Shown here: in pieces, positions 38,601 through 54,154 of the stretch
Position numbering within the stretch: the first letter of the stretch is position 1
Layout: each line of letters opens with the position of its first letter
Source: a virus
Virus record (IMG/VR): IMGVR_UViG_3300045988_166195
Location: 32,001-96,000 of that record
Reading direction: 5' to 3' (one strand)
Length of the DNA: 64,000 bases
The notes under the pieces: generated by a model
The model's database searches: none
What the model was told of the DNA's origin: nothing
Seen by the model: the letters and a program-made list of their open reading frames with translations, nothing else
Translations under genes and position numbers: made by a program

Positions 38601-39687
38601 CCACCGTGCGGTGCGAGACTCTAAGACGGTGACTCAGGATACTGAGCGTCTCATCGAAGGTCTGAACGTTGAGGGCAAAGTGTCGTACACGATCAGCGCG
38701 AAGGAAGAAAGTGTCATTGGGTACAACGATCTGGCATTCTTGCCGGAACGTAACTCGATCATCTTTTCGGCAGGCATCTCGCCTATCTGGAACCGCAATG
38801 CGGAGATTCTTCCTATGTCGTGGCGCTTGTTCAGCAACACGATCAAGCATCCGGGCCGCGAGTACTCACTTCAGACGATTCCGACTCTCTCGTCGGCGCT
38901 TGATTTCGATGTGCGTCTTAACCAGCCGAACTTCATGAAGATGCTGGATAAGCGCATCGAGCAAGCCGCGAATGCGGCTGAGGCGATGGAGTTGTACCAG
39001 GAGGCATACGATCTGGATGATTATGGCATCTCGATCCTGGATCCCGATGTGTACTCGGCTGAGGTCATGGATCTCATTGCCTCGATCGAGGAAGAGCGCA
39101 GGGGCCACGACATGGAGAACGAAGAGTACGACATGGACAGTGACGAGGCTCTACGTGCTCAGTTGGGATCTGGCTACGATATGTTCAACGAGGCTGACGA
39201 GATTAACGAAGATGTCCGCGAGGATCTTGCTGCTCGTCAGGAGATGTTGGCCGATCGAGCGAAGATGCGCTACGCGGAAGGTCAGATCAGCCGTGAGCAT
39301 CTGATGAGTGAGAGTGGACAGGTGTTGCACCATCTCGATGGTGACATCGTTGCTGCGTATCGTGAAGCGAAGCACGCAATGGTGGATGACGTTCGGTTCT
39401 TCCGAACAGACGAGAACGGTTCGCTGTGCTCGCTGGATGGAAAGGTCTACATCAGCCAGGGTGTGTCGAGCGATGAGCTGCGTACTCTCCAAACCGCATC
39501 GTCCGATGAGACGAGCGGTGTGTATGCGGATGATGAGTCGATCTCTGAGATCGCGGACCTGGGTTCGTGGCGAGTCCATGATGCGTTCTATAGGTTCTTG
39601 CACGGCCTGGAGTCGTGGGAGGATCTCGGCGGAGGCACTTTCGATCGCGCTATTGCACGAGTGTTCGAACGTCGAGAGAACGAGTGA
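35641..39687 (+). CDS. Type IV coupling protein (VirD4/TraG family) with a long C-terminal extension
   Basis: Two N-terminal TM helices (VAGVLIFILVWMLFSFGTMGV and FIVSSIAGLVVWGLLRM). TraG/VirD4 P-loop region MILAMTRAGKGQTYIEPMLDIWMRQKRPDNMVINDPKGEL (compare APTRSGKGVG...DPKGE). Walker B-like RFMLDELGNL. About 1350 aa. The C-terminal roughly 450 aa are acidic and not assignable. The start could be GTG 35632. Confidence 0.7.
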   Translation: MAFGRKKSGGAAPREHGSQAWNQLGKQDELDSLAYQDVHGDQQLERSDIEAKISPVSREVASAVAGVLIFILVWMLFSFGTMGVAMGRDALWRSSVPSYAVQNKALTKELGKPVWSEGCFSPALETGEIDTSDETCYEAAEDVPEPQWHVDAVAAEQAERDVELADRPSGAMGWMLSFDWLKFIVSSIAGLVVWGLLRMRLMRNLKAQNLMRDTTDINQYKNDQHVALPEEVRERFDVVPDVGAHTGVSATTLISHSMVSNKGIKKVAFAQRATEDILDEDGDVALFEGEALTDDNGDVVTKMVPMFDEEFGTALWNASGLPDNKQLRRRLDPRNVPYNPGNANRDKLKGFNTLADLVNGEWELPMYEPQRPAGVYYVDTAPANTMILAMTRAGKGQTYIEPMLDIWMRQKRPDNMVINDPKGELLVKNYVRATMRGFQVVQFNLINAMKTDIYNPLGMAAEAAREGDQTKCALYVENIADVFFPVDGAEDPVWPNAANNAFKRAAYGLIDYYLEEEHQLRQYAMRHGMDQKVLEQKLDAMWGKVTLYNCYQLFVQLTSKKRKSPMTQVNERIKSGYYDQQSSDPDEVDALIEHDKMQAERIEFLWEGKPESDLLTLFFNATEALPQSTMRTLIANANNALRAMAGAEKMLASVYGIAITAMSFFTDPTISTLTSGTPSQNTDLGGLSFPRRFGVRFAQNFTKRDGLIGAQAKWDAFDDPELKHNLGKDFEHEDTVVREGWARYYFDGKFPHDVAYLRLRLFNPQTGVLLKTFYFQFTKGYQLSLNGRKFVKDPITGNKIIRNGVLVEMVKGKNGVLVSGHLSYPATRLLDKAGSLKTVREDVPAIILSSVRYSEQPKAVFLVTPPHLMKYAKLVLILVKQLVDLNFDKSYMTKANQKPLYKTRFMLDELGNLQSEGHGISGFETMLSIGLGQEQQFTLILQTLQQARDVYGDSVDKIIQGNVANIVFLKSTDDTMIETLAKMSGTRHRAVRDSKTVTQDTERLIEGLNVEGKVSYTISAKEESVIGYNDLAFLPERNSIIFSAGISPIWNRNAEILPMSWRLFSNTIKHPGREYSLQTIPTLSSALDFDVRLNQPNFMKMLDKRIEQAANAAEAMELYQEAYDLDDYGISILDPDVYSAEVMDLIASIEEERRGHDMENEEYDMDSDEALRAQLGSGYDMFNEADEINEDVREDLAARQEMLADRAKMRYAEGQISREHLMSESGQVLHHLDGDIVAAYREAKHAMVDDVRFFRTDENGSLCSLDGKVYISQGVSSDELRTLQTASSDETSGVYADDESISEIADLGSWRVHDAFYRFLHGLESWEDLGGGTFDRAIARVFERRENE

Positions 39688-39758: not shown

Positions 39759-40400
39759 CTATTGCTGAAGCTTGATTCTCCCGGAGCAGTACGGGCAACC
39801 AGTCTTTTTGGTGGTGCGGCTATACGGTGTTGCCTTCCACGTATGAGAGGGGTTTATGGGGCACTGCCATAGCACGGACACGTCCGATCCTGGTTTAAGA
39901 GTGGTAGCGAGAGATTGATCGATGAGTTGTTCGGCCAAGTCTGGATGTGTAGTTGCCAAGTCGCTTTGACCAGAGACGGCACGGCGACCTGAGCATTGAG
40001 GGCAGCGCGTTCCTTGGCGTGCGACGTTGCTGAGCGGAGCAGTCCAGTGATCGTGCATAGGGTTACCGCACCAGAACTCAACTTTCTTGTTGGAAGAGCC
40101 GGTGAGCTTTGTTTGTAGGCTCGTATCGACCATGAGAGCAGCAGCTTCGGGATGAGTGGTGGCAACGTCGTTGACACCGGGGATCACAGTCTTGCCATTA
40201 CATACGCTGCATCCGGTGGGGTTTTTCGCGTTCGTACGGTTCATAGGGCTGGCCCACCACACGTGACGAGAGTCAACGGGGCAGCGCCATTGGACCTTCT
40301 TGTCTGAACCGCGAGCGATAGATCTTAGGGATTGGTCCACAAGCTGGTCAGCAAGGGCGGGGTTGAACTGCTCAAGGGTCTGAGATGGTTTTCTTGGCAT
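39759..40400 (-). CDS. Triple zinc-ribbon repeat protein (DUF4379-type probable zinc-ribbon domains)
   Basis: Three repeats of about 65 aa with the pattern LAxQLxDQSL...GSxxxVxWxCPxxxxHxWxAxPxxRT.....GCxxCxG.....GxNDxATTHP. 12 Cys/His ligand positions are conserved. GGAG-like Shine-Dalgarno (aggagaaccgccATG on the minus strand). Confidence 0.55.
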   Translation of the reverse strand: MPRKPSQTLEQFNPALADQLVDQSLRSIARGSDKKVQWRCPVDSRHVWWASPMNRTNAKNPTGCSVCNGKTVIPGVNDVATTHPEAAALMVDTSLQTKLTGSSNKKVEFWCGNPMHDHWTAPLSNVARQGTRCPQCSGRRAVSGQSDLATTHPDLAEQLIDQSLATTLKPGSDVSVLWQCPINPSHTWKATPYSRTTKKTGCPYCSGRIKLQQ

Positions 40401-40580
40401 GGCGGTTCTCCTGATTCTATTAGGGGTTGTTTGTATTATTCAGTGTATCATAAATAGTCGGTTATATGTATGCGGGTTCCCTTGTGTTTCCAGTCGAAAT
40501 GCGGGTTTTTGTCGGGTAGAATGGAGGGCGTAATACCCGATCGATCCAGTGGATCGAAACTCCAGGAAGGAGAATGCGTT

Positions 40581-43500
40581 ATGCAAACGCGCAATGCCGG
40601 ACTCCGGCGTTACATGTACGAGCATATGATCGCTCGCACAATCAATCGAACCTCGGAGATCACGAAGACTCCGATTCTTGTATCTCAGGGTCGACGCCTG
40701 AGGGATCTCATGGAAGAGCGTCTCAATGAACAGGGTCGTTCTTTCAACGATGGTGATCTACCTGTTACCGATGCGCTGGATGCTATCCAGAGCATCATGG
40801 AAGAGCATGTTCCCGGATACAAGCCTTTGTTCCAGCCTGCCGATACATCGAGTAAGGGCTACAAGGTTCTATATGAAGAGTTCAGGAACATGGTCGGTCT
40901 GAATGGCTCTGCTGGCGCGGCTGGTCCGCGTCTGCCGATTTCTCCGTATGATCCCCGGTGGGGGAGCCGTCGCACTGTGAAGCAGGCTGGGACCTCTATC
41001 CTGTACGTGCTCGATGGCGACATCGCCGCATACGCAGACGGTAAGCCAAGCAACATCGAGAAAGCGACGACCTCAGAACTTACTCTGTACCGCTTGACTG
41101 ATGAAGGGAAGGCCAAAGAGGCAGGCCGCGCTCTCAGCCTTGATGATGTCTCGGGTCTCACCGAGCTCATGGGTCGCATGTCGACGGCTGAGTACAACGA
41201 GGTTCGTCAGTGGGTGCTGGACGGTGCTCGCAACCCTGAAACGGGGCGCTACAACGCCCGTCAGTTCATGAGCACTGATGCATTGGCTCGTTCCCGAGCT
41301 GTGCTGGACATGCTCGCAGAAGAGGGCATTCCGTACACGATCGAGAAGGATCTTCGCCCTGGTCAGATCCGTGCGCGTTTGACGGGTACGAATATGACGG
41401 TGCGCCTGACTGACACCCGAGACAAAGAGCAGTGGGTGGGTCGTGTCTACGACAACGGTGCAACTCTGTACTTCTCCACGACGGCTCGTCGAGACAACAA
41501 GCAGGTGGCCTACACGCCAACTGTTGACGAGGTGTGCGACCTCGTGCGTGTTGCGCTGGGTCGACCAGTGGAGCGCAAGGATGGTAAGGGCCTCGTGGGC
41601 CGAGTGGGCGAGCGTCAGACCAGCAAGGGTAAGACGGTTCAAGAGTCGTATCTCTCCACTGGAACACTGACGAGTGCGTACAAGGACATGCCCGGTATGA
41701 ACGGTGAGCAGATCGTGATTCGTCGTCAGATGAAGGAGCGTTCTGCGTCTTCGCGGTTCTTTGCCGATACGCCCGAAGGTCGTGAACAGGCATCCGGTTT
41801 CATTACCGGTGCTGTGCACAGCGCTCGTCACAATGTGATTGAGCAGCTCGATGTCGATGGTCTGATCCAGCAGTTCCGCGATCACGAGGATGCTGCCCGT
41901 GAGGGTACGTACATCCCTATGCTGTCTGGTGATCCTGATCTTGCGGCGGTTGGCCGCGCGTACTGGGATGTGCTTCGTGGCGCTGAGACAACTCTGCTGA
42001 AGCCTGAGGCTACGCGAGCTGAGTACGCTGAGGCGACGGGTCTGCTTGACGACATGGATCAAGAGAGCGATCTGTCGGGCGTTCACGACATGCTGGCCGG
42101 TTCCGTGGCGTACACGGGTACCCCGGAAGAACGTGTTCGTGCGCATCTTCGGGATCTTCTCGATACCCAGATCGGTATCGATGAGCCTATCGACTCTGAT
42201 GACTTCGTGTTCGATCCAGTGCGCGTTGCTCGTTACATGACGAGTGAACACGGCCAGTGGCGTAACAACGATGATCTCGTGGCTGCTATGCGCAGCGTTG
42301 GTATGCCTCAGGAGAAGATCGTCGGGGAGTCGTTCTATTCCAACACGTTCCGCGATCGACTGATCACCTTCGATGAGTCCACGGCTTTGCCGATGGAGAC
42401 GGTCGAAGATGAGTTCACTCAGTCGATGCTTCAGGTTGTGTCTGACACGCTGGAGTCCTGCGCTGTGACGCCTGGTTCTATCCGCGTCGACGCCAACGGC
42501 GTTGTGGAGTGGACGGGCTCCATCATGCGCTCGCAGACAGGTAAGGAAGAGCCCGTGAGCGGTACGATCGGACAGATCTTTGCTCGCGGTGAGAACGGTG
42601 AGATCATCACACGGTTCAATTCCGGTAACGATCTGATGATCGTGCCTGGTTTTGACGCACGTGTGGTGGCACAGAAGCCTGGAGAGAACAAGTCCCTCGA
42701 AGAGCGCACCCGGCTGATCGGTTACGAGCAGCAGATGAGTGACGCGATTCGATACCGAGTTCAGGCTGATGTGCTCTCAGGTCGTTCTCGTGTGGGTGAA
42801 CCCGCCTCGTTGAACAGTGTGTACCGTCGTCTGTCGGATACGCGCCATCGCGCGGATCACTACGAGCGCGCTCTCGAAGAGGGTATGGATCGGAAGATCC
42901 TTGATGCCATTCTTGCTACCGAAGCGCGTCGTGTGCGTTACCCGAACGCTTTGCGTGATGGGTCGACGATCGACGCTGACTTCCGTGCATCTCGTGCTCG
43001 GGAACAGGGTATTGGTGGCGATCCGGCCAACGACACGACCATGGATCCGTGGGTGTTGACCGGCGGTCGCAACATGTCGTTGCTCAGCGAAGAAGCCGAT
43101 GGCTACTTCGATCCGATCATGACATCGGGCGGTGTGAACCAGGGCGTGACTCGTTATCTGGTGTCCGGTGCGCAGGTGAATCCTGATGGATCGATCGTAC
43201 GTTCTGATAAGAACGACCGTGCACCGCTGATGTTGACTGAGCAGGCTCAGCTCATGAGCTACGATCCGTTCGATCGTCAGCAGATGACGACTTCTAATCT
43301 CATGAACGCATCGTCTGTGACGAAGCCTGTGGGCACGGCGTTCATGACTGCTGGTGGTTGGACGATGGAGGACTCCATCGTTGTCTCGGCTGACTTTGCC
43401 AAGCAGTACCGCGTTCGCGGCACTGACGGTCAGATGCGCGATCTCATCGTTGGTGACAAGATCTCCGATATGCACGGCAACAAGGGTGTTATCTCGCTCA

Positions 43501-46031
43501 TTGTTGATCGCAATGCCGATCTGTCTCCTGATGAGATTGAAGAGTTGCATGGATCGACTGACATGATGACGCTTTTCCGGGAGAATCCGGGTTTGGATGT
43601 CGTCATGGCACCGTTCAGCGCTGTGTCTCGTTTCAACGGCGGCTCGGCACGTGAGGCGATGCGGCAAACGTCTGCGCTTCATCTGCCAAACGGCACAACC
43701 GTTGAGGCAGGTATTGGTCAGGTGTCGTTTATCGGCACGCATATGACCGTGGATGCGAAGACGGCTGCATACGATGAAGCTGCGATCCGAGCTGGACAAG
43801 GTCGTAAGGCGTCGTCTCAGCTTGCATGGGCCTTGCAGTCCCAGGGCTGCGATAAGGTGTTGGGGCAGATGTATGGTGGCAACCTGCAAGCTCTTGCGCA
43901 GCTGCGTGAAATGGCTCTGGTGTGCGGTTTGGACATCGAGCCTGATGGCACCTTGCGCGATGGTCATGATGATCTTGCTGTTGGTGGGCAGCGCCGTCTC
44001 ATCGAGATGGGCGATGTGCCGCTGACTGAACGTGGATCGTTCGACGTGCGTCGCGTTCGTAACGATTTCGCGTCGCTGATTGGTGACGCTGGTGGTGACA
44101 TGGAGATTCCGTTCCCGCTGACGATGCCAACGGGCGCTCGTACGCCTCATGCAACAGACACCACCTGGCGTGTGCCGGTGCTGAGTTCGCATCTGCGATC
44201 GGGCCAGGATCTGGATGACGGTACGTCGACGGTCCATGATTACACGTATCGTTACCTTGCGATCCGTGAATGGTCGCTGCGCTACAAGCATGCGGCTGAT
44301 CGCGCTGCGTCTGGTGAGCTGACGGGTAAGGAGCTTTCCGATGCTCGTCGAACGATGGCTGAGGCTATGCACCGTGCGCAGACGGCTTACGATGGCATTG
44401 CGCAAGACATCATGCGTCGCCGGTTTACCGGCAAGCGCAATGTCTTCAAGGAAGGTCTCATGGCTTCGCGTCTGCCGCACTCGGCTACCGCTGTGTGGAC
44501 GGGTGATCCTCGCTTGGACATCGACCAGGTTGGTGTTGGCCCGGAGCTGGCGAAGAAACTACACTTGCGCGATGGTGACTACGCGCTTGTGTGGCGTGAT
44601 CCTGTTCTGCGTGATGCGGGTGTCCGTTACATGCGTGTTGCGATCGATGACCGTCTCACGGGTGTGAGTGTGAATCCAAACATGGTCAAGTGCTTCGACG
44701 GCGACTTCGACGGTGACTCTGTGGCTGTTGTGAAGCTGGGTGATGGTCCGGCACATGAGCAAGCGCTGGAGCGTCTGACTGTCGAGGCTAACCTCATCGA
44801 TCTCGGTCAGAGCATGGACGACGAGGGTCGTTACCCTCTTGCGATGCACAACGCGCTCGATGTGAAGGTGTCGCAGCACTACGACTCTCGTCATGCGGAT
44901 GCGATGGATGAGGTTCATCAGCGCGCCAACGATGCGTACTACGATCTGACTGAAGGGGATGCTACTCGTGAGCAGTTCCTGGAGGCGGGTCGTGATGTCG
45001 TTGATGCAGCGTCGTATATGTACCGTGATGCGCTTCAGCATCAGTACGGTGAGGCTGTGTTGTCGTTTGGTTCCGTTCAGGAGCACATGAAGTCTGTGGC
45101 GGCTGCGTGTATTGAGACGGGAGCTAAAGGCTCGCCTAAGAAGATGCTGGATTACGCTCGGTACATCGGCTATGACCCTGAGAACCAGGTGGATCTGGTG
45201 ACCACGTGTGTGACTCGTGGGGAACAGCAGGGCACCATGTTTGCGACGGCTGTGAAGTCGTTTGGTACCGGTGTTGCCGGTACGTTCTCGCAGCGTGGTG
45301 TGCGAGCTCTTCGTAACGATGAGCTCAAGGCTGTGTTGGAGCTGACCTACCCGGTGACGCAGAGTATTTTGCAGGCTAAGCACGACCCTGTGGATGCTCG
45401 TCATCGCTATGAGTTGCTGATGGGTCCGGCGCGAAGCTTGTGGCGTGGTCAGATGATTGCACAGGATGCCAACGGTGTGTGGAACACTGTGACGGATGAC
45501 GATCATAAGCCGGTTCAGGCTACCAAGGATCAGTGGGTCGCTGTGTTCTCGCAGTTCTATGGCGATGATGGTCTGGGTGTGGCTGTGAACAGTGACAACA
45601 TCACGAAGGTTGCAAATGCGCTCAGCGATAGCAACGGGGTGATGGTGAATCTGGAGGACGAGAAGGTCATTGAACAGCTCGCTTCTCCGATGGATCGTCT
45701 GGCTTACGGCGGTGACTTCACCACGATGCAAGCTCTGGCTGAGACTCGGGCAAACTTGTTCGAGGGTCGGTGGAACGTTACGTTTGCACCAGCTCGTGTG
45801 CGTGAGGTGCTGGAGGCTGATGTGGAGACGCAAGCTGAGGCACCGGTGATCGCCATGGAAGACACTGTGGCTCGCGTGGACCGTGATGAGAAGATCGGTC
45901 GACGTAAGTCGACATCGTGGGCTGTCCCAGTTCGCTCGAACACGGGTGCCAGCGCAGCTGAGCGTTACGGTTTGACGACACAAGACAACAGTGAGACAGA
46001 CAAGTCTGTCGATGATGGTTTCGAGCTGTAA
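40581..46031 (+). CDS. Giant single-chain RNA polymerase-like protein: RpoB-like module followed by RpoC-like module (YonO-like mobile-element RNAP family), ending in ...KSVDDGFEL
   Basis: AGGAAGGAGAA Shine-Dalgarno then ATG 40581 (MQTRNAG). Beta-like module: AFMTAGGWTMEDSIVVS (compare RpoB AFMPWNGYNFEDSILVS), GDKISDMHGNKGVISLIV (RpoB GDKMAGRHGNKGVISKI), DVVMAPFSAVSRFNGGSAREAM (RpoB [20 protein letters not shown]), SSQLAWALQSQG (RpoB GEMEVWALEAYG). Beta-prime-like module: LVWRDPVLRDAGVRYMRV (RpoC LLNRAPTLHRLGIQAF), VKCFDGDFDGDSVAVV (RpoC NADFDGDQMAVH, the Mg-binding aspartates), TGAKGSPKKMLDYARYIGY (RpoC SGARGS...RGLM). The E. coli sequences are from memory. The antisense ORFs inside it are shadows. 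Confidence 0.75.
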   Translation: MQTRNAGLRRYMYEHMIARTINRTSEITKTPILVSQGRRLRDLMEERLNEQGRSFNDGDLPVTDALDAIQSIMEEHVPGYKPLFQPADTSSKGYKVLYEEFRNMVGLNGSAGAAGPRLPISPYDPRWGSRRTVKQAGTSILYVLDGDIAAYADGKPSNIEKATTSELTLYRLTDEGKAKEAGRALSLDDVSGLTELMGRMSTAEYNEVRQWVLDGARNPETGRYNARQFMSTDALARSRAVLDMLAEEGIPYTIEKDLRPGQIRARLTGTNMTVRLTDTRDKEQWVGRVYDNGATLYFSTTARRDNKQVAYTPTVDEVCDLVRVALGRPVERKDGKGLVGRVGERQTSKGKTVQESYLSTGTLTSAYKDMPGMNGEQIVIRRQMKERSASSRFFADTPEGREQASGFITGAVHSARHNVIEQLDVDGLIQQFRDHEDAAREGTYIPMLSGDPDLAAVGRAYWDVLRGAETTLLKPEATRAEYAEATGLLDDMDQESDLSGVHDMLAGSVAYTGTPEERVRAHLRDLLDTQIGIDEPIDSDDFVFDPVRVARYMTSEHGQWRNNDDLVAAMRSVGMPQEKIVGESFYSNTFRDRLITFDESTALPMETVEDEFTQSMLQVVSDTLESCAVTPGSIRVDANGVVEWTGSIMRSQTGKEEPVSGTIGQIFARGENGEIITRFNSGNDLMIVPGFDARVVAQKPGENKSLEERTRLIGYEQQMSDAIRYRVQADVLSGRSRVGEPASLNSVYRRLSDTRHRADHYERALEEGMDRKILDAILATEARRVRYPNALRDGSTIDADFRASRAREQGIGGDPANDTTMDPWVLTGGRNMSLLSEEADGYFDPIMTSGGVNQGVTRYLVSGAQVNPDGSIVRSDKNDRAPLMLTEQAQLMSYDPFDRQQMTTSNLMNASSVTKPVGTAFMTAGGWTMEDSIVVSADFAKQYRVRGTDGQMRDLIVGDKISDMHGNKGVISLIVDRNADLSPDEIEELHGSTDMMTLFRENPGLDVVMAPFSAVSRFNGGSAREAMRQTSALHLPNGTTVEAGIGQVSFIGTHMTVDAKTAAYDEAAIRAGQGRKASSQLAWALQSQGCDKVLGQMYGGNLQALAQLREMALVCGLDIEPDGTLRDGHDDLAVGGQRRLIEMGDVPLTERGSFDVRRVRNDFASLIGDAGGDMEIPFPLTMPTGARTPHATDTTWRVPVLSSHLRSGQDLDDGTSTVHDYTYRYLAIREWSLRYKHAADRAASGELTGKELSDARRTMAEAMHRAQTAYDGIAQDIMRRRFTGKRNVFKEGLMASRLPHSATAVWTGDPRLDIDQVGVGPELAKKLHLRDGDYALVWRDPVLRDAGVRYMRVAIDDRLTGVSVNPNMVKCFDGDFDGDSVAVVKLGDGPAHEQALERLTVEANLIDLGQSMDDEGRYPLAMHNALDVKVSQHYDSRHADAMDEVHQRANDAYYDLTEGDATREQFLEAGRDVVDAASYMYRDALQHQYGEAVLSFGSVQEHMKSVAAACIETGAKGSPKKMLDYARYIGYDPENQVDLVTTCVTRGEQQGTMFATAVKSFGTGVAGTFSQRGVRALRNDELKAVLELTYPVTQSILQAKHDPVDARHRYELLMGPARSLWRGQMIAQDANGVWNTVTDDDHKPVQATKDQWVAVFSQFYGDDGLGVAVNSDNITKVANALSDSNGVMVNLEDEKVIEQLASPMDRLAYGGDFTTMQALAETRANLFEGRWNVTFAPARVREVLEADVETQAEAPVIAMEDTVARVDRDEKIGRRKSTSWAVPVRSNTGASAAERYGLTTQDNSETDKSVDDGFEL

Positions 46032-46047
46032 GACTCGGTGAGAGGGG

Positions 46048-46078
46048 CGGGTTGTTTCGCGTGGTTGAAGCAACCCGC
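46048..46078 (+). terminator. Weak hairpin after the RNAP-like gene
   Basis: GCGGGTTG-tttcgcgtggttgaag-CAACCCGC, then TTCCTCTTC. Confidence 0.3.
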
Positions 46079-46113
46079 TTCCTCTTCATGAGCCGGTGTA
46101 TCTTGATATGGCA

Positions 46114-46145
46114 GCGATAGTACAATATACTGATATATGAGTCGA
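46114..46145 (+). promoter_or_regulatory. Variant copy of the recurrent motif (GCGATAGTACAATATACTGATATATGAGTCG) upstream of DDGFEL-tail paralog A
   Basis: Two mismatches to ATATACTGGTATACGAGTCG at 48431. About 30 nt upstream of ATG 46176. Confidence 0.3.
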
Positions 46146-46175
46146 AAACCCGTTCCAAGAAAGGAAATATTTATC

Positions 46176-47387
46176 ATGTCTGTGTCAGCTATGTCAGAGT
46201 GGATGGCGAAGTTCCCCCAGGATTGGGTCGAGATTCGTTATGGTCTTGAGGCTCATGAGTGGGCTGGTTCGCTTTCTGATCGAGTGATGGCGATTATCAA
46301 TAAGAATGACCCCGCACGAGAAGATCGGGTTAATGCATTGCTGCGTGACAATGCTGTGCTTCTTGAAAGAAGGTTTCAGGGTCACAGGCGTCCAGGACCT
46401 GACGAGGACTTTATTGATTATGCCGAGTTCCGTGATGCCATTTCTCATGTTGTAGAAAATGGTATTTCTATTAACGATGAAACCTATTCGCAAATCCATT
46501 ATGTGGATAGTACATGTGTGCGTTCTCCGACAAAGGCGCTGCTGCGTCCGCATCATGAGGTATATCCCAATGCCAACGTACAGGCTTTTTATCGTCGGTC
46601 TTTGCGCGAGGGGAAGCCTTCAAAACCTTCGGATGGATATATCAAAAATGTGTATGGTCTGAGAGGCGATGAATGGACGGGCACATCAGTCGATGTGGGG
46701 GCGATCATCAATGATCGCTCATCGAGGATAGCATCGATAAGGGATCAGCGTGTCAATGATTTCTTGCGTGATCAGGTGGCTGTTTTCGAGATGGGCATGG
46801 AGAAGCTTGAGGCCAAGAACGCAACATATAACGATATGGGAGTAGGTGCTCGTGCTTATGGTTATGATCTGCGTGATGCGATTGAGGAAGCCGTAGAGAA
46901 TGGTATTTTGATTAATGCTGAAACGATGAACGCTATCAAGAGGGTAGAGCATGATTACGTGACTCCATATGTCGGGGAATCGTTGGCGAACCAATATGAC
47001 AAGTTGTATGAGCTTAATGAAGCACGGAAACATCATCATGAGATTGCGCCATCGTTTGCATCATCACATGAAAAGAAGTCTGAGCCAGCGATTCATTCGG
47101 TCATTACCGGTGGAAGTGGTCATGGTAAAGAACAGGTTCAGCTTGCTAACGTTTTGAGCGGACGGATGCCCTCGATGGGTCGCGATACAGACGGCCAGTC
47201 TTTGGCACCGTCTACCCCGTCTCAGGGTTCTCGTCAGGGGTCTATTGGGGCAGCGCTTCCCGGTAGTTCCATTACTGTTGGTCGTCGGACGCCTCGTGTG
47301 TCGCCCACTGCTGGTACGGCTCGTCGTATGGGTATTTCTGAGTCTCAGGTACAGACCCCAAGCGTCGATGACGGTTTCGAGCTGTGA
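46176..47387 (+). CDS. DDGFEL-tail repeat protein, paralog A (404 aa)
   Basis: Shine-Dalgarno GAAAGGAAAT. Contains RYGLEAHEWAGSLSDRVMAIINKNDPAREDRVNALLRDNA and a second copy NVYGLRGDEWTGTSVDVGAIINDRSSRIASIRDQRVNDFLRDQV. Then ILINAETMNAIKRVEHDYV, a Ser/Pro/Gly-rich disordered tail, and ...GSIGAALPGSSITVGRRTPRVSPTAGTARRMGISESQVQTPSVDDGFEL. Slightly lower GC than the neighbours. Confidence 0.55.
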   Translation: MSVSAMSEWMAKFPQDWVEIRYGLEAHEWAGSLSDRVMAIINKNDPAREDRVNALLRDNAVLLERRFQGHRRPGPDEDFIDYAEFRDAISHVVENGISINDETYSQIHYVDSTCVRSPTKALLRPHHEVYPNANVQAFYRRSLREGKPSKPSDGYIKNVYGLRGDEWTGTSVDVGAIINDRSSRIASIRDQRVNDFLRDQVAVFEMGMEKLEAKNATYNDMGVGARAYGYDLRDAIEEAVENGILINAETMNAIKRVEHDYVTPYVGESLANQYDKLYELNEARKHHHEIAPSFASSHEKKSEPAIHSVITGGSGHGKEQVQLANVLSGRMPSMGRDTDGQSLAPSTPSQGSRQGSIGAALPGSSITVGRRTPRVSPTAGTARRMGISESQVQTPSVDDGFEL

Positions 47388-47477
47388 TCGCCATGTGATC
47401 ATGGGTTGACACCATGAAGAAGCAGGTCTCGCCTTCGGGTGGGGCCTGCTTCTTTGTCTGTATACGTTGCAATGGTG

Positions 47478-47499
47478 CGATATACTGGTATACGAGCCA
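47478..47499 (+). promoter_or_regulatory. Recurrent motif GCGATATACTGGTATACGAGCC upstream of paralog B
   Basis: Part of a roughly 40-nt block (TACGTTGCAATGGTGCGATATACTGGTATACGAG) nearly identical to the one at 48415-48450. Confidence 0.4.
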
Positions 47500-47531
47500 A
47501 ACACGTGGCGATGATGGAAAGGAAGGGTGTT

Positions 47532-48344
47532 ATGACGCTTTATTACGATCAGGAAATCAAGGAGTATACCGATGCCGGGATCAGGCGATACAAAGGTCTT
47601 GATCCACATGAAGAGCTGGATGCACCAACCGAGCGGTATGGTCTTGATCCACATGAGTGGACAGGAACATTGGCCGATAAGGTGACAGCGATTATCGGTA
47701 AAAATACGCCCGAGAAGGAAACGCATGTGAATGCGTTGTTGCGCGATGCGGCAAAATCATTTATGAAGAATGCCAAATATGCGGAAATGAATGCCCATAA
47801 TGATGAAACTACCTTTAAGAAGGTAATGTCTGTCAACGGTGATGATTTGCGTGCTGCTATGTCCGAAGCGTCCTTGGGCGGCATTCTTATTAACGATGAA
47901 GCGATGGATGCTATCAAACGTGTGGAAAAGCGTTATCTTTCATATTGGAGTTTTGATTTCGGTTTTGATTCTCTGACGCATGCATACGATGAGCTGTATA
48001 AACTTAATGATGCGCGAGCTCATTTCCGTGAGAGTGCGCAAGTGATGCGAGGTGCTGCGAATACCCCAGCGATTTCAAATCCAGAGTTTGATCGTTTCGC
48101 CCCGCCTCAGGGTTCACGTGTGACGACGGTTCCGCCGCCTGTGCGGTCTGCGCCCTCTATCCCGTCTGCTCTTTCTATGTCCGCTGTGTCCACTCAGCGA
48201 ACTGGTTCTATCCAGGCTGTGCTTCCAGGCAGTGGTATCAAGGTGAGTCGAGCGGCACCTCATGTTCCGCAGACTGCCCGTCGTATGGGTGTTGTTGAGT
48301 CACAGGTGCAGACTCCGAATGTTGATGACGGGTTCGAGTTGTGA
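47532..48344 (+). CDS. DDGFEL-tail repeat protein, paralog B (270 aa)
   Basis: Shine-Dalgarno AAAGGAAGGG then ATG (MTLYYDQEIKEY). RYGLDPHEWTGTLADKVTAIIGKNTPEKETHVNALLRDAA. ILINDEAMDAIKRVEKRYL. Tail ...GSIQAVLPGSGIKVSRAAPHVPQTARRMGVVESQVQTPNVDDGFEL. Confidence 0.55.
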   Translation: MTLYYDQEIKEYTDAGIRRYKGLDPHEELDAPTERYGLDPHEWTGTLADKVTAIIGKNTPEKETHVNALLRDAAKSFMKNAKYAEMNAHNDETTFKKVMSVNGDDLRAAMSEASLGGILINDEAMDAIKRVEKRYLSYWSFDFGFDSLTHAYDELYKLNDARAHFRESAQVMRGAANTPAISNPEFDRFAPPQGSRVTTVPPPVRSAPSIPSALSMSAVSTQRTGSIQAVLPGSGIKVSRAAPHVPQTARRMGVVESQVQTPNVDDGFEL

Positions 48345-48428
48345 CGCTGACGTGATTATGTGATGGGGTAGGTCTTGCTTGAAAGCGGGGCCTACTTCAT
48401 CGTTTTGCCATGTTATCGTTGCAATAGT

Positions 48429-48450
48429 GCGATATACTGGTATACGAGTC
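48429..48450 (+). promoter_or_regulatory. Recurrent motif GCGATATACTGGTATACGAGTC upstream of paralog C
   Basis: Identical core to 47478. About 30 nt upstream of ATG 48480. Confidence 0.4.
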
Positions 48451-48479
48451 GAATGCAACTAAATGAAAGGAAGATGGTC

Positions 48480-49808
48480 ATGTCGACGATATGGTATGAA
48501 GGCCCCACCGATGGCAACATCGAGGGGCGTTACGGTCTCGATTCGCACGAGTGGGTGGGGTCGCTGTCCGATAGGGTGGCGACGATCATTGACAAGGATG
48601 ATCCTTGGAAGGAAACTCATGTGAATGCGCTCTTGCGTGATGGCGTGGAGTTCTATGCGCAGAAGTCGCAGGATCATCCAGAATTGAGTGATGATGATCA
48701 GATGCGCGATGCTATCTCTTATGTGGCGCATAGCGGTGTTCTCATCGATGATGAGACTCTGTTGGCTCTTACGGATGCGGATGACAAGTACGTCATCCCG
48801 TTTGGTGCAGAGTCTTTGATGTACGAATACAACAAGGTGCATCAGCCTGATTACGGACGGATTTATCAGCGTCAGCGTGATGCTGCGCAGTTGCCGTACG
48901 CGGAGGCAACAGACGAAGAGATCAAGGAGCACTATGGCCTTGATCCACATGAGTGGAAAGGGAGTCTTGCCGATAAGGTGATGGCGATTGTTAACAAGAA
49001 TACGCTTGACAAGGAAACGCATGTGAATGCGCTTCTACGTGATGGTGCACGGCTGTTCGCTCAGAATATGGAAGCTCAACCGGTATCGGGTGTGAGTGAA
49101 GATGAGATGAGGTACGCGGTGGAGTCTGGTGGCGATGAACTACGCGCTGCCATCTCTGACGCATCGTGGGCTGGTGTTCTCATCAACGATGAAGCGATGG
49201 AAGCCATCAAGCATGTGGAGAAGGAGTACATCACTGAGTTCGGTGGAGACTCTCTGACGCATGCGTATGATCAGATGCGTAAGCTGAACGATGCACGCGC
49301 TCATTATCGTGAGTCTGCGAAGGAGATGCGTGGCTCTGCGCCTGCTGCGCCTGCTGCGCCTGTTACCCAGGCACCTTCGAGCTTTGATCGTTTCGCCCCG
49401 CCTCAGGGTGCTCGTGTGACGACTGTTCCGTCGCCTGTGCGCACTGTTGGGTCTGCTCGGTCTACTCAGGCAGCTCAGTCTGCACTGTCTGTGCCTCCTA
49501 TTCCGCAACCTCCGAAGACGCCGGGATCCCAGGTTCGCACAGGTGGTCCTGTGCGGGTGGGTAATGTCGCCAAGGACTGGCTGGCTGCGAATGGTCGTGA
49601 CGAGAAGGGTCGGCCTCTTGCGTCTACATCTACGCCGTCTACGCCTCAGGTTCCGGCTCAGCGATCGGGTTCGATCCAGGCTTCGCTTCCTGGTAGCGGT
49701 GTCACCGTGGGTCGATCGACGCCGCGTGTGCCACCCACTGCCCATCGTATGGGTATCCCTGAGCCCCAGGCGCAAACCCCAAGCGTTGATGACGGCTTCG
49801 AGCTGTGA
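48480..49808 (+). CDS. DDGFEL-tail repeat protein, paralog C (442 aa), with two internal copies of the HEW/ETHVNALLRD module
   Basis: Shine-Dalgarno AAAGGAAGATGG then ATG (MSTIWYEG). Module copies RYGLDSHEWVGSLSDRVATIIDKDDPWKETHVNALLRDGV and HYGLDPHEWKGSLADKVMAIVNKNTLDKETHVNALLRDGA. VLINDEAMEAIKHVEKEYI. Pro/Ser-rich linker. Tail ...GSIQASLPGSGVTVGRSTPRVPPTAHRMGIPEPQAQTPSVDDGFEL. Confidence 0.55.
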   Translation: MSTIWYEGPTDGNIEGRYGLDSHEWVGSLSDRVATIIDKDDPWKETHVNALLRDGVEFYAQKSQDHPELSDDDQMRDAISYVAHSGVLIDDETLLALTDADDKYVIPFGAESLMYEYNKVHQPDYGRIYQRQRDAAQLPYAEATDEEIKEHYGLDPHEWKGSLADKVMAIVNKNTLDKETHVNALLRDGARLFAQNMEAQPVSGVSEDEMRYAVESGGDELRAAISDASWAGVLINDEAMEAIKHVEKEYITEFGGDSLTHAYDQMRKLNDARAHYRESAKEMRGSAPAAPAAPVTQAPSSFDRFAPPQGARVTTVPSPVRTVGSARSTQAAQSALSVPPIPQPPKTPGSQVRTGGPVRVGNVAKDWLAANGRDEKGRPLASTSTPSTPQVPAQRSGSIQASLPGSGVTVGRSTPRVPPTAHRMGIPEPQAQTPSVDDGFEL

Positions 49809-49850: not shown

Positions 49851-51512
49851 ATGGCTCGTCCACCTCGTCAACTTCCAGCGCCTCGTTACGGGGGTGAAGT
49901 TGGTCCGCAGAAGGTTCAAGACGAAACTGCGACAATGGCTGTGACCAAGGAGCAGATTTTCGACAAGAAGCCTGAACCTGTTCACGCGGTAGAGCCAAAG
50001 CCTGCGCTCGATTGGGCGCAGCAGCTGAGGCTCGATATGCGCTATCACGCTGATGGGTATCTTCACGCTCTCAGCCAGATAAATCTGAAGACCATGAAGC
50101 GAAAGGCTGACATCGCTTCTCGCATGAACGATCTTCAGGGTAAGCACAAGGCTTATGCGTCGATGATGGTGCTCAGCGCATTGGTACCGTTGAAAGACGG
50201 CGTATCGATGTCGGCTGTGGTTGAATCTGTTGGCATGGGTGTCACTATGTGGATGTTGTCGCCCAACTTCCGCCAACAGGTGAAGTCATTCGCTCGTGAT
50301 GCGCGTATGGCTGTCGAAGACATGGCTGAGGCGCGTCGACGCAGTCAGTCGAAACAGTTGCATGATAAGGCCGATCAACATCGAGAGAAGCATGGTGGTG
50401 AATTGCCGCCCTCTCTGAAGCGTCGTCTGGAGCGTATCGAAGCGAAGGAGCGCAATGGTCGCATCCCGTTCAATGAAGCGAGTGCGGCTTTGACGCATCT
50501 TGGTCTGAGCGAAGCGATGTTCAACCAGATGCGGCAACCGGGTGTGGATCCTGTTGAGGTTCAGGAAGGCTATGCGCACCTGATGGAGCGCTTCTGGGAT
50601 GATGTCCACAAGGACGGCTTGGATCCCGAAAAGGTGAACACCGTCAGTCGTATGCTCATGGGCCAACGGATGCGTTATGAGCCCCACTGGGCGAATGCGT
50701 TCGTTGAAACCGCTCATGGCGAGGTCGATATGGACATGGTGGAGACGGTGGACGCTCAGACGGGTGAACCCCATCGAACGTGGACGGGTATCTGGTCCAC
50801 GCGCATGGGTGAGCCTATCGTGGGAGGTTCTTTCACTGTCCGTCCTCCGTACAACGAGATGCAGCATGAGTTGTCTCTGAGTACGTGCATGGCTCGTGAG
50901 ATGGAGCGTGCAGCGCTGAATGGTAACATTGCGGATCTGAATGAGTCGCTGCTTGCCTACGGTTCTGCGTGGTCTGTTCGAGACAAGAACCTGGACGTGC
51001 ACAGCGTTCCTGGTGCGATGGGTGAGAAGATTCGTCGAGCTCGTCGTGGTCTCGATGCCATGGAATTCGATGGTTTTGACCGCGATCAGCAGCGAGACAT
51101 CTATGCGACATCGTTCGTTCACGCCATGGACATGGTGGCGAAGGCTCACCCGGACATCGAGCGTCACTGGGCGCAGCAGTACGGTTCTCAATGGCGATCG
51201 GAGATGCGAGACTTCGCAGCGACGCCAGAGGAAACATACAACCGGTGGCAACGGGGGGAGTTTTACTCTGATGCACGTGAATCTCCAGGGCATGACAATG
51301 CCCATGTGGATCCGCACACGGAACGAATGAGGGAAGATTCCAAGCGTCGACGCAGCGCGTACAACCGTGCGCGTGACAACCAGGAGTACAACGCTCATGA
51401 GACATCGGCGTTCAAGGCTGAAGACTTTGAACTCAATGATGTCGACGACGAGTTTGACATGGGTGGGTACGATCGACCTAATGACAACGATGGTTTCGAA
51501 CCATCTCTATGA
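49851..51512 (+). CDS. Hypothetical protein (553 aa) ending in ...DRPNDNDGFEPSL
   Basis: Strong Shine-Dalgarno AAAGGAGGACAAG then ATG. Complex composition, no recognised domain. The C-terminal DGFE-containing tail is loosely related to the DDGFEL tails. The 370-aa antisense ORF is an R/H-rich shadow. Confidence 0.5.
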   Translation: MARPPRQLPAPRYGGEVGPQKVQDETATMAVTKEQIFDKKPEPVHAVEPKPALDWAQQLRLDMRYHADGYLHALSQINLKTMKRKADIASRMNDLQGKHKAYASMMVLSALVPLKDGVSMSAVVESVGMGVTMWMLSPNFRQQVKSFARDARMAVEDMAEARRRSQSKQLHDKADQHREKHGGELPPSLKRRLERIEAKERNGRIPFNEASAALTHLGLSEAMFNQMRQPGVDPVEVQEGYAHLMERFWDDVHKDGLDPEKVNTVSRMLMGQRMRYEPHWANAFVETAHGEVDMDMVETVDAQTGEPHRTWTGIWSTRMGEPIVGGSFTVRPPYNEMQHELSLSTCMAREMERAALNGNIADLNESLLAYGSAWSVRDKNLDVHSVPGAMGEKIRRARRGLDAMEFDGFDRDQQRDIYATSFVHAMDMVAKAHPDIERHWAQQYGSQWRSEMRDFAATPEETYNRWQRGEFYSDARESPGHDNAHVDPHTERMREDSKRRRSAYNRARDNQEYNAHETSAFKAEDFELNDVDDEFDMGGYDRPNDNDGFEPSL

Positions 51513-51524: not shown

Positions 51525-51857
51525 ATGTTGGGTTTCCCAAAGGATGACGACACGATCGGCGGTCTGTTCGGTGTCAACGAAGAGGATCGTCACGCATGGG
51601 CCAAGGAGCGTCAGATGAGGCTGGAGCGTCAGCAGATGCAAAAGCCTGGTCTGGCGAAGAAGGCAACGATGGCTGCTTACGAAATCGCTGCTGCTGGCAT
51701 CACTTCGCAGATGCGTGCGGCGTACATCGAAGAGGCCCGTGGCACGATGGCGAAAGAGACGACCACGACGACTCGTAGTCAGTCTCGAAATATTGATCCC
51801 GAACTCGAAGAGATTCGACGGGAAGCACCGTCTGGTGGCTACGAATTCGTTGGCTGA
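51525..51857 (+). CDS. Small hypothetical protein (110 aa)
   Basis: Shine-Dalgarno AAAGGAGTGACCA then ATG. Its start overlaps the stop of the upstream gene (ATGAAAGGAGTGACCAATG). Charged, helical composition. Confidence 0.4.
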   Translation: MLGFPKDDDTIGGLFGVNEEDRHAWAKERQMRLERQQMQKPGLAKKATMAAYEIAAAGITSQMRAAYIEEARGTMAKETTTTTRSQSRNIDPELEEIRREAPSGGYEFVG

Positions 51858-51908: not shown

Positions 51909-52022
51909 TATGTATCGGTCGGTTAAGCATCGGTGTGTTCCGATATGTTAGACTGATACACGAACATAATCAGAAAGCGGCTATGTGCCGTTACACGTGG
52001 GGAAAGGATGAGAGGTTGGATC

Positions 52023-52373
52023 ATGGCGCTCAAGAAGGACGTACAGAAGAATGTGAGGGTGGATGATGACACCCGTATGACGAAGACGAAGTTGATACAG
52101 GCCGTATCGAAGCGTACGGGTATCGATAGCGCTACAGTGCGAGCTGTGTATGCAGCTATCGTCGATGAAATCATCACGACGACCCGTTCTGGCCGATCAG
52201 TTATGCTGACGGGATTCGGTCGTTTCTACCGGCTACATAAGGCCGGTCACACCGTGCAGTTCACCAAGTCGGGTACAGGCGCGGTTCCTGGTTACGACGT
52301 GCTGAAGTTTTCGGCCTCGTCGACGCTGAATCGATCATTGACAAGCGAGTCGAACGAGTCAGATGATCATTGA
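52023..52373 (+). CDS. HU/IHF-family histone-like DNA-binding protein
   Basis: MALKKDVQKN...TKTKLIQAVSKRTGIDSATVRAVYAAIVDEIITTTRSGRSVMLTGFGRFYRLHKAGHTVQFTKSGTGAVPGYDVLKFSASSTLNRSL. This is the classic HU layout (K..LI..V.......V......GF.F.....R.GRNP.TG). Shine-Dalgarno GGAAAGGATGAGAGG. Confidence 0.7.
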   Translation: MALKKDVQKNVRVDDDTRMTKTKLIQAVSKRTGIDSATVRAVYAAIVDEIITTTRSGRSVMLTGFGRFYRLHKAGHTVQFTKSGTGAVPGYDVLKFSASSTLNRSLTSESNESDDH

Positions 52374-52448: not shown

Positions 52449-53606
52449 TCATTGAGAGATGGATCCATTGATCTCGACATATGTCGTCTGCACACTTGTT
52501 TGATCAGGTTGCTTTTCCCACATGATCCATCCATTCGTCAACAATTCTCGATTACTGTCGCGTTCTTTCCATCTAAACGATAGCCAGAACGATGGTCCGT
52601 TGAGAATGGATTCCCTCGTATCGGCGGGTAGTCGTGACAATCGGTGTGTCGCATATTTGACGACATCATCAATCGTATACCGGTAGCCATGCACTGCCGC
52701 CCCTTGGAACTTCACAGATGTGGTAAACATCTGAGGTTCTATTTCTCCAATGTGAATATCGTGGCGATCGAATTTCATTCGATAGCTATTGGTGCGAGAT
52801 GTTGTATCGTCATCTGAAGTAGCGAAGATGGATACCAACGTGCGCACTTCCGATTCACTAGATGCAGTGATGTCGACTGCGCCTTCCACAATTGATGTTG
52901 TCGGATGCTCTCTCATTATATCGAGAAGCTTATCTCGAAATTCGATAGCATCTGCTTCATTGAAATTCTCTAGGTAATAGAGATAGCCACGCCCATGGGG
53001 TTTCGCGAAGTATACAAGATCGTCGATGTCGTATTGTGAAAGCTCACCGATGATTGCCTCGTTGTTCTTGAACCTTGTCATGAAATTGGTGATTCCGGTA
53101 CGAGTGTAGTCGGCATACTTCCATGACGAAAAGCCCCATTGATCCAGTAGGTCAACAGTGAGATCTCTGCGGTCGTAGTACATGGTGTCCAAAATCGCAG
53201 AGTATAGTGCTGTTCCCTTGCTTTTTTGGATGAGGGTTTGCCCACGTGCGATGAATGAGTCCTCTGTCGTGAATTCTTTCCACGTGACGACAACGGTCAA
53301 CTCTTTGTCTGTGAGTTGTTGGATTTTGGGGCCCATATCTTTTTGCTTGTGGCGTCGACCAATTACATCGAACATATCGATGAGGTTGTTGCGATAGTCG
53401 TTGCGACCTGTCGCCTCAAAGGGAATGCCGTAACACATTTTGTCGTCAGGCTGAGGACTCCATAGAGTAATTTTGGGACCAATCTTTGTTGACCACTCAT
53501 ACTGTTTGGGGTGCAGTTCATTAACGATGTTGATAAACGTTTGGGCTACGTCTAACGATTCAGCAGTGATGTGAAAGTATCCTTTCACTGTGGTTGAGAC
53601 TACCAT
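52449..53606 (-). CDS. Hypothetical protein (385 aa), lower GC than the surroundings; candidate accessory or abortive-infection-type cargo
   Basis: Long ORF with complex composition (W/Y/F/K-rich, unlike the R/L-rich shadows). An AGG-rich Shine-Dalgarno region lies upstream. Local AT content is visibly higher than the flanks. No recognisable motif. Confidence 0.5.
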   Translation of the reverse strand: MVVSTTVKGYFHITAESLDVAQTFINIVNELHPKQYEWSTKIGPKITLWSPQPDDKMCYGIPFEATGRNDYRNNLIDMFDVIGRRHKQKDMGPKIQQLTDKELTVVVTWKEFTTEDSFIARGQTLIQKSKGTALYSAILDTMYYDRRDLTVDLLDQWGFSSWKYADYTRTGITNFMTRFKNNEAIIGELSQYDIDDLVYFAKPHGRGYLYYLENFNEADAIEFRDKLLDIMREHPTTSIVEGAVDITASSESEVRTLVSIFATSDDDTTSRTNSYRMKFDRHDIHIGEIEPQMFTTSVKFQGAAVHGYRYTIDDVVKYATHRLSRLPADTRESILNGPSFWLSFRWKERDSNRELLTNGWIMWEKQPDQTSVQTTYVEINGSISQ

Positions 53607-53680
53607 GGTTGACCTCTTTCGTTATTGTGCGCTCACTACTGTGAGTCTGATGTGGGTGCGTTTATTTAGTGCACCACAAT

Positions 53681-54034: not shown

Positions 54035-54095
54035 GTGCGCTCCTTTCGAGTAGGGGGGGGGTAGGGGGGGGTTGAGTAGATAGAGTGTGAGGGTG

Positions 54096-54131: not shown

Positions 54132-54154
54132 CAGGAGGACGGCATAAGGGCTTG

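Follow-up and report, generated by a model that had tools for sequence, protein, structure and literature searches.

Here we describe a short C-terminal tail shared by a giant RNA polymerase (RNAP)-like protein, by the proteins encoded directly after it and by proteins encoded around a conjugative relaxase. They lie in a stretch of 64,000 nucleotides of DNA (IMG/VR virus record IMGVR_UViG_3300045988_166195, positions 32,001 to 96,000; hereafter the window), which is part of a large conjugative element whose host group is oral Actinomyces. The tail is very probably a functional shared docking motif of some kind, and probably serves as an address label that brings its carriers to one shared partner. 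Our preferred reading, which leans on gene context and to which we give a probability of about 40 %, is that the tail recruits its carriers to an adjacently encoded giant type IV coupling protein (T4CP), so that they are transferred together with the DNA. Coordinates are collected in Table 1.

The polymerase ends in KSVDDGFEL, and the three tandem paralogous proteins encoded downstream of it (open reading frames (ORFs) 46137-47387, 47439-48344 and 48375-49808) end in QVQTPSVDDGFEL, QVQTPNVDDGFEL and QAQTPSVDDGFEL, respectively. These ends are present as quoted in a preliminary description of the sequence, and so are NDNDGFEPSL on the next protein (p553) and DLDDPEF and IDEPEF on the proteins encoded upstream (p382) and downstream (p190) of the relaxase. 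VDDGFEL constitutes the last seven residues common to the RNAP and all three paralogs; by our own estimate from residue frequencies, the probability of meeting the same seven residues by chance on an unrelated protein is of order 1e-9. The four DNA copies of the tail differ at 4 of 7 codons, every difference being synonymous, while the DNA preceding the tail (RNAP versus paralogs) and the DNA beyond the stop codons are unrelated. Thus the sharing appears to be maintained at the protein level, and a DNA-level cause such as a repeat, a terminator or a ribosome binding site (RBS) overlapping the stop codon is ruled out on the same grounds.

Related elements conserve the tails independently of the upstream domains in the paralog, RNAP, p553 and p110 families, p110 being a small conserved protein encoded downstream of p553. 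Among the 120 closest homologs of the paralogs (56-100 % identity), 111 end in SVDDGFEL and the remainder in near-variants. Conservation in the paralog alignment reaches 0.99 in the last 7 columns (rank 3 of 258 windows), compared with 0.95 at positions -50 to -21 and 0.83 in the folded domain. A profile of the domain alone, free of the tail, retrieved 20 representatives from 1.84 billion proteins, and every full-length match ends in [DE][DGA][GSE]FE[LF] with the exception of one repetitive protein of 7917 aa, a weak low-complexity match that was set aside. The RNAP, p553 and p110 families retain such tails across about 70 actinobacterial elements. RNAP homologs of 31-97 % identity nearly all end in an acidic run with an aromatic or hydrophobic residue, their ends including DGYEL, DDYQL, GPELG, DGFEYGL, DDYGMGY, NGLEA and GGFEL. 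Among the RNAP homologs of staphylococcal plasmids (about 26 % identity), two end in NDKGFELEM and ASGFDLEM and a third in IDLQYGQ; a Lactococcus homolog ends in EVEIEMEV. The conservation in the paralogs and the recurrence across the actinobacterial elements uphold the view that the tails are a selected short linear motif carried by unrelated proteins.

To quantify the motif, a 5-residue position-specific scoring matrix (PSSM), [DE][DG][YF][GEQ][ML], was learned from RNAP homologs less than 75 % identical to the RNAP of the window, and the last 8 residues of 45 window proteins were scanned with it against a null of internal windows. At p < 0.01 the expectation is 0.45 proteins, and nine of the 45 score: the RNAP, the three paralogs, p553, p110, the MobL relaxase, p382 and p190. 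All nine are predicted to be soluble; the T4CP and a 760-aa protein encoded upstream of it are membrane-anchored. The T4CP, the ATPases, a cell-wall hydrolase, a topoisomerase, HU and the parts of the type IV secretion system (T4SS) are negative in the window. Across the related loci (numbered with an L below), the matrix flags 83 % of RNAP, 70 % of p553, 67 % of p110 and 80 % of paralog tails, the p553 value referring to 44 distinct family tails scored against the null's 99th percentile. It flags 0 % of T4CP, Clp-like, HU, UvrD-like, AAA624 and DUF4379 tails and 1.8 % of 903 other ORF ends, several of which are module proteins by position. These motif statistics rest on related, phylogenetically non-independent sequences, in a set dominated by Streptomyces and with mechanical ORF calls in high-GC loci. 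In the RNAP family, 113 of the 135 distinct C-termini belong to the motif class, and 109 of 120 tails have only 0-2 residues beyond the motif, which carries 1.9-2.7 bits per position against 0.5-1.2 in the linker before it, a contrast to which the anchoring contributes some circularity.

The tip is the end of a longer bipartite module that consists of an Arg-rich part (-40 to -21), an acidic part (-20 to -6) and a hydrophobic-E/Q/G-hydrophobic tip. In the RNAP family the fraction of Arg falls from 0.17-0.21 at -40 to -21 to 0.01-0.03 at -20 to -1, and that of Asp plus Glu rises from 0.03 to 0.20-0.27. Taken together, the RNAP, p553, p110 and paralog families have 0.11-0.21 Arg in the first of these segments and 0.2-0.3 acidic residues with almost no Arg in the second; the first segment is almost acid-free in the RNAP, p110 and paralog families. 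Control families do not show this charge profile. The segment GSIQAxLPGSGxxVxRxxPxVPxTAxRMG that was previously noted before the paralog tips is found as described, and is the local version of the Arg-containing part of the module. AlphaFold2 (AF2) places the module on a disordered extension of about 95 residues in paralog 2, where a helical bundle (residues 33-177, predicted local distance difference test (pLDDT) 70-90) is followed by disorder at residues 177-270 (pLDDT < 50), and of about 50 residues in the RNAP (residues 1804-1853, pLDDT 24-38). Motif position and pLDDT thus put the peptide at an extreme and unstructured C-terminus, and the scan puts it on unrelated soluble proteins but not on machine components, both of which are features of a T4SS signal.

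The name giant RNAP, given to the tail-bearing polymerase earlier, is fair. Its ORF matches Pfam Rpb2_6 and Rpb1_2, and a beta'-type DFDGD and a beta-type GDKxSDxHGNKG motif are invariant in 21 diverse homologs, the invariant residues being D1410-G-D-x-D-G-D1416 and K997...G1003-N-K-G-V. The AF2 model of the C-terminal 1200 aa (pLDDT 87.8, predicted template modelling score 0.84) has bacterial RNAP beta' as its top PDB matches in Foldseek (E 1.5e-11, probability 1.00). By motifs and model, the protein is classed as an RNAP of the multisubunit type, with two double-psi beta-barrels, and is presumably catalytically active. Gene callers start its close homologs about 37 aa later, near position 40581.

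Beyond the proteins listed in the preliminary description, the motif class occurs on p110, on the MobL relaxase and as internal copies in p553. The full end of p110 is SGGYEFVG, and its orthologs, assigned by position, end in NGYEL, NGYEF, EGFEF, PDFEL or, in Streptomyces, EEIEPDLEL. The relaxase end DSMELG (PSSM p = 0.003) is found in 13 of 14 close relatives and is lineage-specific. In p553 three tandem tips are conserved among close homologs; the internal ones indicate that a free carboxylate is not strictly required, and multivalency is likely.

The tails had been sorted into two separate types, with D-D/E-P-E-F as the second, but this division does not hold, and they form one interchangeable class instead. 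In L073, whose RNAP is 79 % identical to that of the window, the single paralog ends in SIDDEPEF, and close relatives of p382 end in DLDDPEF, DFDEFEA, DEDLEL, DEELEM or DDEPGF. The RNAP of L075 ends in EPSL, as does p553 of the window and of L005; PELG is the ending of Arthrobacter-type RNAPs, of Gordonia and Nocardiopsis p553 and of Plantibacter p190. In the p190 family elsewhere a distinct variant is conserved, [DE][DE]P[AE][VL]G, mostly ending in PAVG. As the same variants move between families, we argue for one tolerant recognition system or receptor. The RNAP and paralog tails of L005 (EDDGFEL, ADGGFEL and DEASFEL) differ from each other yet keep to the class. Strict co-variation of tails within elements was not found, the tails being uniform in the window and L004 and differing in L005, L073 and L075, so that co-variation gives no pointer to the receptor.

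Several observations make the T4CP, which matches Pfam T4SS-DNA_transf, TraG-D_C and TrwB_AAD_bind, the best candidate for this receptor. It lies directly upstream of the RNAP in the annotated or gene-called relatives examined and co-occurs with it in both phyla, Actinomycetota and Bacillota; of the related loci, 73 contain a T4CP homolog, 77 an RNAP homolog and 74 p553. Coupling proteins select the substrates in all T4SSs, and the relaxase, an obligatory T4CP substrate, carries the motif in this lineage. In addition, the architecture of the tail resembles known C-terminal T4SS signals. From this we infer that the tails have a single partner in common, namely the T4CP, and that its binding results in translocation.

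In such a mechanism the module would mark a defined set of soluble proteins for the T4CP, whose binding would recruit and translocate them. Since T4SS substrates travel as unfolded monomers, each protein would need a ticket of its own, be it the RNAP, p553, p110, a lineage-specific paralog or a relaxase-associated protein. The carriers would enter the recipient together with the single-stranded DNA, and there the RNAP set could act on the incoming strand, by transcription or priming, ahead of any host-dependent expression. The F-type T4SS does move plasmid proteins into recipients (PMC8406263). T4SS translocation is described as demanding substrate unfolding (PMC5826034), and such a need could explain the conserved Clp-like ATPase. 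In its broadest form the proposal is that Gram-positive conjugative elements of a widespread family, found in Actinomycetota and Bacillota, export their own fused beta/beta' RNAP with specificity or accessory proteins through a T4SS, possibly with the help of the Clp-like unfoldase; we hold this to be unlikely. Export would then use the bipartite C-terminal signal, read by the unusually large coupling protein, and the Actinomyces-specific paralogs would be co-injected effectors.

A number of points weigh against recruitment to the T4CP. Gene order is what assigns the receptor role to this protein, and its C-terminal region is itself strongly acidic. The relaxases of Streptomyces, Rhodococcus and Gordonia show no consistent motif, and the tail is therefore no universal mark of T4CP substrates. 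The Streptomyces families hold distinct variants (RNAP DDYGMGY, p553 EDYQPA, p110 EPDLEL), which could equally mean different partners. One distant RNAP homolog, in L070, has neither a tail nor a detectable upstream T4CP, a single case that is also compatible with the T4CP model. Finally, the adjacency of the RNAP, p553 and p110 means that the tails could serve the assembly of a transcription complex in the donor instead of export.

This last point belongs to a wider alternative, which we consider doubtful, in which the tails dock in the donor onto another hub encoded by the element and their carriers are not exported. The hub could be the relaxosome/oriT complex (for example through the small basic protein next to the relaxase genes, in the way of TraM), the 760-aa protein, the Clp-like ATPase or the RNAP complex itself. 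The RNAP, p553 and p110 genes are co-inherited as well as adjacent, the three tandem copies in p553 suggest avidity for an oligomeric hub, and the Clp-like ATPase and the membrane-anchored protein are conserved between relaxase and T4CP. Insertion of an acidic tail into a relaxosome protein is moreover an established mechanism (PMC3159463). However, a shared peptide is not normally required for the subunits of one complex to bind each other, and the AF2 model of the C-terminal 1200 aa of the RNAP, with its disordered last 50 residues, has no docking of the tail onto the RNAP core, a weak negative. The tail could also be a degradation tag, read by an AAA+ protease or unfoldase of the host or the element, that makes the RNAP set short-lived. 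Known degrons such as those of the ssrA/ClpX system are usually C-terminal peptide tags on disordered ends, a format that the tail shares, and the element encodes two Clp-like ATPases. Such degrons nevertheless end in non-polar residues of the ...LAA type, unlike the tail; the ATPases have no protease partner in the window, and the deep conservation from Actinomycetota to Bacillota fits targeting better than turnover, so that we rate this reading as very improbable.

Mimicry of the C-terminal tip of SSB, the protein that binds single-stranded DNA, an analogy drawn in the preliminary description, or docking to another host hub such as the sliding clamp, is improbable. Such mimics would recruit the host proteins that interact with SSB, or compete for them. 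DLDDPEF and IDEPEF do resemble the plasmid SSB tips of related elements (GSDEEPPF, HNDEPPF), and the tails follow disordered linkers as in SSB. An SSB tip is an acidic run ending in (I/P)PF with Phe last, whereas DDGFEL has its Phe at -3, and DDGFEL, GFEPSL, GYEFVG, SMELG, YGMGY and YQPA all lack a Pro-Phe end. DDPEF and DEPEF are the only tails that end in Phe, and homologs of p190 and p382 do not keep it (PAVG, DEFEA, DLEL, ELEM); the internal copies in p553 have no free carboxylate. The variation between host lineages exceeds what would be expected of a universal host pocket. The clamp motif is a Gln-x-x-Leu-Phe pentapeptide and the proteasome-activator tail (HbYX/GQYL) has a penultimate Tyr; the tails contain no QLxLF-type clamp motif (QL[SD]LF), and the learned motif has its aromatic residue at -3 or further from the end. 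As for a functionless relic of a duplication or gene conversion that copied the RNAP 3' end onto the paralogs, the genes are adjacent and a 22-nt tail stretch is 95 % identical between the RNAP and paralog 1. The homology, however, ends exactly at the tail and differs by synonymous changes only, the tails of L005 have diverged within the class, the class recurs in unrelated families and distant elements, and the tail is the best-conserved part of the paralogs, all of which leaves a relic strongly disfavoured.

Judged by its sequence features, the tail appears to work like known C-terminal recruitment peptides while being a member of none of the families compared. Like the Glu-rich E-block signals of Dot/Icm (type IVB) systems, the tail is an acidic C-terminal peptide without structure that many otherwise unrelated soluble proteins carry; in Dot/Icm, the acidic signals are bound by DotM, a component of the coupling complex encoded beside the T4CP (PMC5802825). 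In contrast, the present system belongs to another T4SS class (Gram-positive, with a MobL relaxase) and has no DotM homolog, and its tail is shorter, with an aromatic or hydrophobic tip and an upstream Arg-rich patch. Substrates of the Agrobacterium VirB/D4 system carry an Arg-rich C-terminal transport signal, reportedly described by Vergunst and colleagues in 2005. Like the present tail, whose Arg fraction is 0.14-0.21 at -40 to -21, that signal is C-terminal and disordered with clustered arginines. The tail differs in having its Arg patch 20-40 residues upstream of an extreme end that is acidic instead of basic. SSB tips (DDDIPF; in actinobacteria ...DEPPF) share the format of an acidic-aromatic hub motif after a disordered linker, and differ in the required final Phe. 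The acidic C-terminal tails of phage T7 gp2.5 and gp4 share one docking site on the DNA polymerase, so that there, as proposed here, unrelated proteins of one element use similar acidic-aromatic tails for one partner; the T7 case concerns a replisome with the polymerase as receptor, whereas here the polymerase bears the tail. In the F plasmid, the acidic C-terminal tail of TraD docks in TraM (PMC3159463). This tail is likewise conjugation-specific and acidic, with an aromatic residue and plasmid-specific variants, and multivalency raises the affinity there and probably does so here, but the polarity is reversed: the F tail sits on the T4CP, whereas here the T4CP is tailless, its C-termini (for example …FERRENE and …IEMNSK) falling outside the motif, and the soluble proteins are tailed. 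For the proposed outcome, delivery of an element's RNAP with its DNA for early genes, the functional analogy is the virion RNAP of phage N4, which is injected along with the DNA (PMC5512222); the N4 enzyme is T7-like, single-subunit and virion-delivered, whereas the enzyme described here is a fused beta/beta'-type RNAP of a conjugative element and its delivery is hypothetical.

If recruitment to the T4CP with export is true, early transcription or priming of the incoming single strand would be independent of the recipient polymerase, and the early gene expression, host range and anti-defence of these elements would be seen differently. A tail that only tethers proteins in the donor would still make a new hub motif, one that ties a plasmid RNAP to the transfer apparatus. 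The analysis yields a compact transferable motif, nine proteins that are candidate cargo or clients, and one named candidate for the receptor. With these it becomes directly testable whether a conjugative element supplies the recipient with transcription machinery of its own. To our knowledge, the translocation and recruitment signals of Gram-positive conjugation systems are essentially uncharacterised. What is new is the motif itself, the Gram-positive conjugation setting and, above all, the proposed cargo, a plasmid-encoded beta/beta'-type RNAP with its partners. In the papers searched in full text, nothing was found that ties the family of plasmid-borne beta/beta'-type RNAPs to conjugation, and the papers found on plasmid RNAPs in conjugation, pWBG749 and unfoldase/T4SS do not describe the system. 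Matches to YonO in the literature came from the author name Yonogi, and a paper on ClpI (PMC10149685) has no bearing on conjugation. The elements are abundant in human oral Actinomyces and also occur in Streptomyces, Arthrobacter, Rhodococcus, Gordonia and staphylococcal plasmids.

Table 1. Features of the window, with coordinates, strand and remarks
Small basic protein	24278-24757	+	159 aa, pI 10.2; adjoins relaxase genes
p382	24797-25945	+	upstream of relaxase
p382 tail DLDDPEF	25922-25942	+	
MobL relaxase	26075-28414	+	Pfam MobL, E 1e-62
Relaxase tail DSMELG	28394-28411	+	
p190	28542-29114	+	downstream of relaxase
p190 tail IDEPEF	29094-29111	+	
Clp/Hsp100-like double-AAA ATPase	29260-33033	+	two inteins, no tail; candidate unfoldase or alternative receptor
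760-aa membrane-anchored coiled-coil protein	33184-35466	+	no terminal motif; alternative hub candidate
Giant T4CP	35632-39687	+	1351 aa, N-terminal transmembrane (TM) segments, no tail; candidate receptor
DUF4379 zinc-finger gene	39759-40400	opposite	between T4CP and RNAP genes
Fused beta/beta'-like two-barrel RNAP	40470-46031	+	1853-aa ORF
Arg-rich, acid-poor segment of RNAP tail module	45909-45968	+	positions -40 to -21
RNAP tail tip VDDGFEL	46008-46028	+	
Paralog 1	46176-47387	+	two copies of an orphan all-alpha domain, disordered linker, tail module
Paralog 1 tip VDDGFEL	47364-47384	+	
Paralog 2	47532-48344	+	one domain copy
Paralog 2 tip VDDGFEL	48321-48341	+	
Paralog 3	48480-49808	+	two domain copies
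Paralog 3 Arg-containing conserved segment	49656-49745	+	
Paralog 3 tip VDDGFEL	49785-49805	+	
p553	49851-51512	+	conserved partner gene of RNAP
p553 motif copy EDFEL	51420-51434	+	internal
p553 motif copy DEFDM	51447-51461	+	internal
p553 motif copy NDGFEPSL	51486-51509	+	terminal
p110	51525-51857	+	small conserved protein downstream of p553
p110 tail GGYEFVG	51834-51854	+	
HU protein	52008-52373	+	
Second Clp-like double-AAA ATPase (AAA624)	58411-60285	-	624 aa

The nearest relatives of the window are two contigs of an uncultured Actinomyces metagenome-assembled genome, with RNAP identities of 95 % and 86 %, and many metagenome contigs of about 120 kb are further close relatives. A block on the + strand (24.3-52.4 kb) holds the transfer, RNAP and tail-protein genes in the order basic protein, p382, MobL, p190, AAA ATPase, 760-aa protein, T4CP and RNAP, followed by the three paralogs, p553, p110 and HU. 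All tail carriers fall into this single block, at 24.8-51.9 kb, and surround the relaxase and the T4CP. The succession of relaxase, small protein, AAA ATPase, membrane protein, T4CP and RNAP genes recurs in Streptomyces, Rhodococcus fascians and Gordonia plasmids, where genes for a protein of about 570 aa and then one of about 110 aa come next. The next gene encodes HU in the Streptomyces plasmid and a cutinase-family protein in the Rhodococcus fascians and Gordonia plasmids; the three paralogs are absent from these compared plasmids. Streptomyces HU homologs encoded downstream of p110 (loci among L013-L069) share the C-terminal peptide FENV.EDRELRAAS, which mismatches the RNAP-derived motif and may thus be a further tail class.

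Four Firmicute plasmids, L095 (Staphylococcus plasmid SAP020A), L096 (Lactococcus pJM4A), L097 and L098, carry RNAP-like genes of 1787-2382 aa annotated as hypothetical, and are typed as 'mobilizable' or 'non-mobilizable'. In SAP020A, the gene for a T4CP of 1289 aa lies two genes upstream of that for the RNAP-like protein; a topoisomerase and a lysozyme/CHAP protein are also encoded, and the gene set repeats the module logic of the actinobacterial elements.

Searches of Pfam, PHROGs and PDB sequences returned no family for the paralogs, p553, p110, p382 or p190, and the model of paralog 2 matched generic helical bundles only among PDB structures in Foldseek (E > 0.4), from which no function can be inferred. 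The ends of the paralogs given in the preliminary description stand, but their starts need revision: the likely starts are 46176, 47532 and 48480, where an RBS and an ATG follow a promoter-like repeat. This 37-nt repeat (TTGCAA ... TATAC) lies upstream of each paralog, at 46110-46146, 47465-47501 and 48417-48453; the RBS GAAAGGAAG comes after it, and a GC-rich hairpin precedes every paralog (for example 47417-47454). With a hairpin, promoter-like repeat and RBS each, the paralogs look separately transcribed, outside the long transfer operon.

The Clp-like ATPase of the transfer block matches Pfam AAA, AAA_2, ClpB_D2-small and LAGLIDADG_3. Both of its inteins sit in Walker-A P-loops, with boundaries drawn by comparison with L075. 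Intein 1 (about aa 61-356) is also present in the L075 homolog, while intein 2 (about aa 620-989), which contains a LAGLIDADG homing-endonuclease domain, is missing there. The spliced protein would have about 590 aa, the size of the intein-free homologs of the Rhodococcus and Gordonia plasmids. Long coiled coils and a C-terminal TM anchor characterise the 760-aa protein, whose acidic linker includes the SSB-like peptides DDLPFDEG and IEDPFKD. The longest ORF at its locus, 33034-35469 on the - strand, is an antisense artefact: homologs in L001-L003 are annotated on the + strand and have a C-terminal TM segment.

Downstream of the transfer block, 52449-63653 on the - strand encodes a PemK/MazF-like toxin, a 1046-aa UvrD-like helicase, the second Clp-like double-AAA ATPase and an AAA_5 ATPase. 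ArdA and SSB genes occupy the position of this block in the related elements L075, L002 and L003, and the block has the look of a leading or establishment region, one that might be transcribed by a transferred polymerase. Two tandem paralogous genes for DNA/RNA non-specific endonucleases (Endonuclea_NS_2) lie outside the transfer block, at the window's left edge (1521-3121, - strand).

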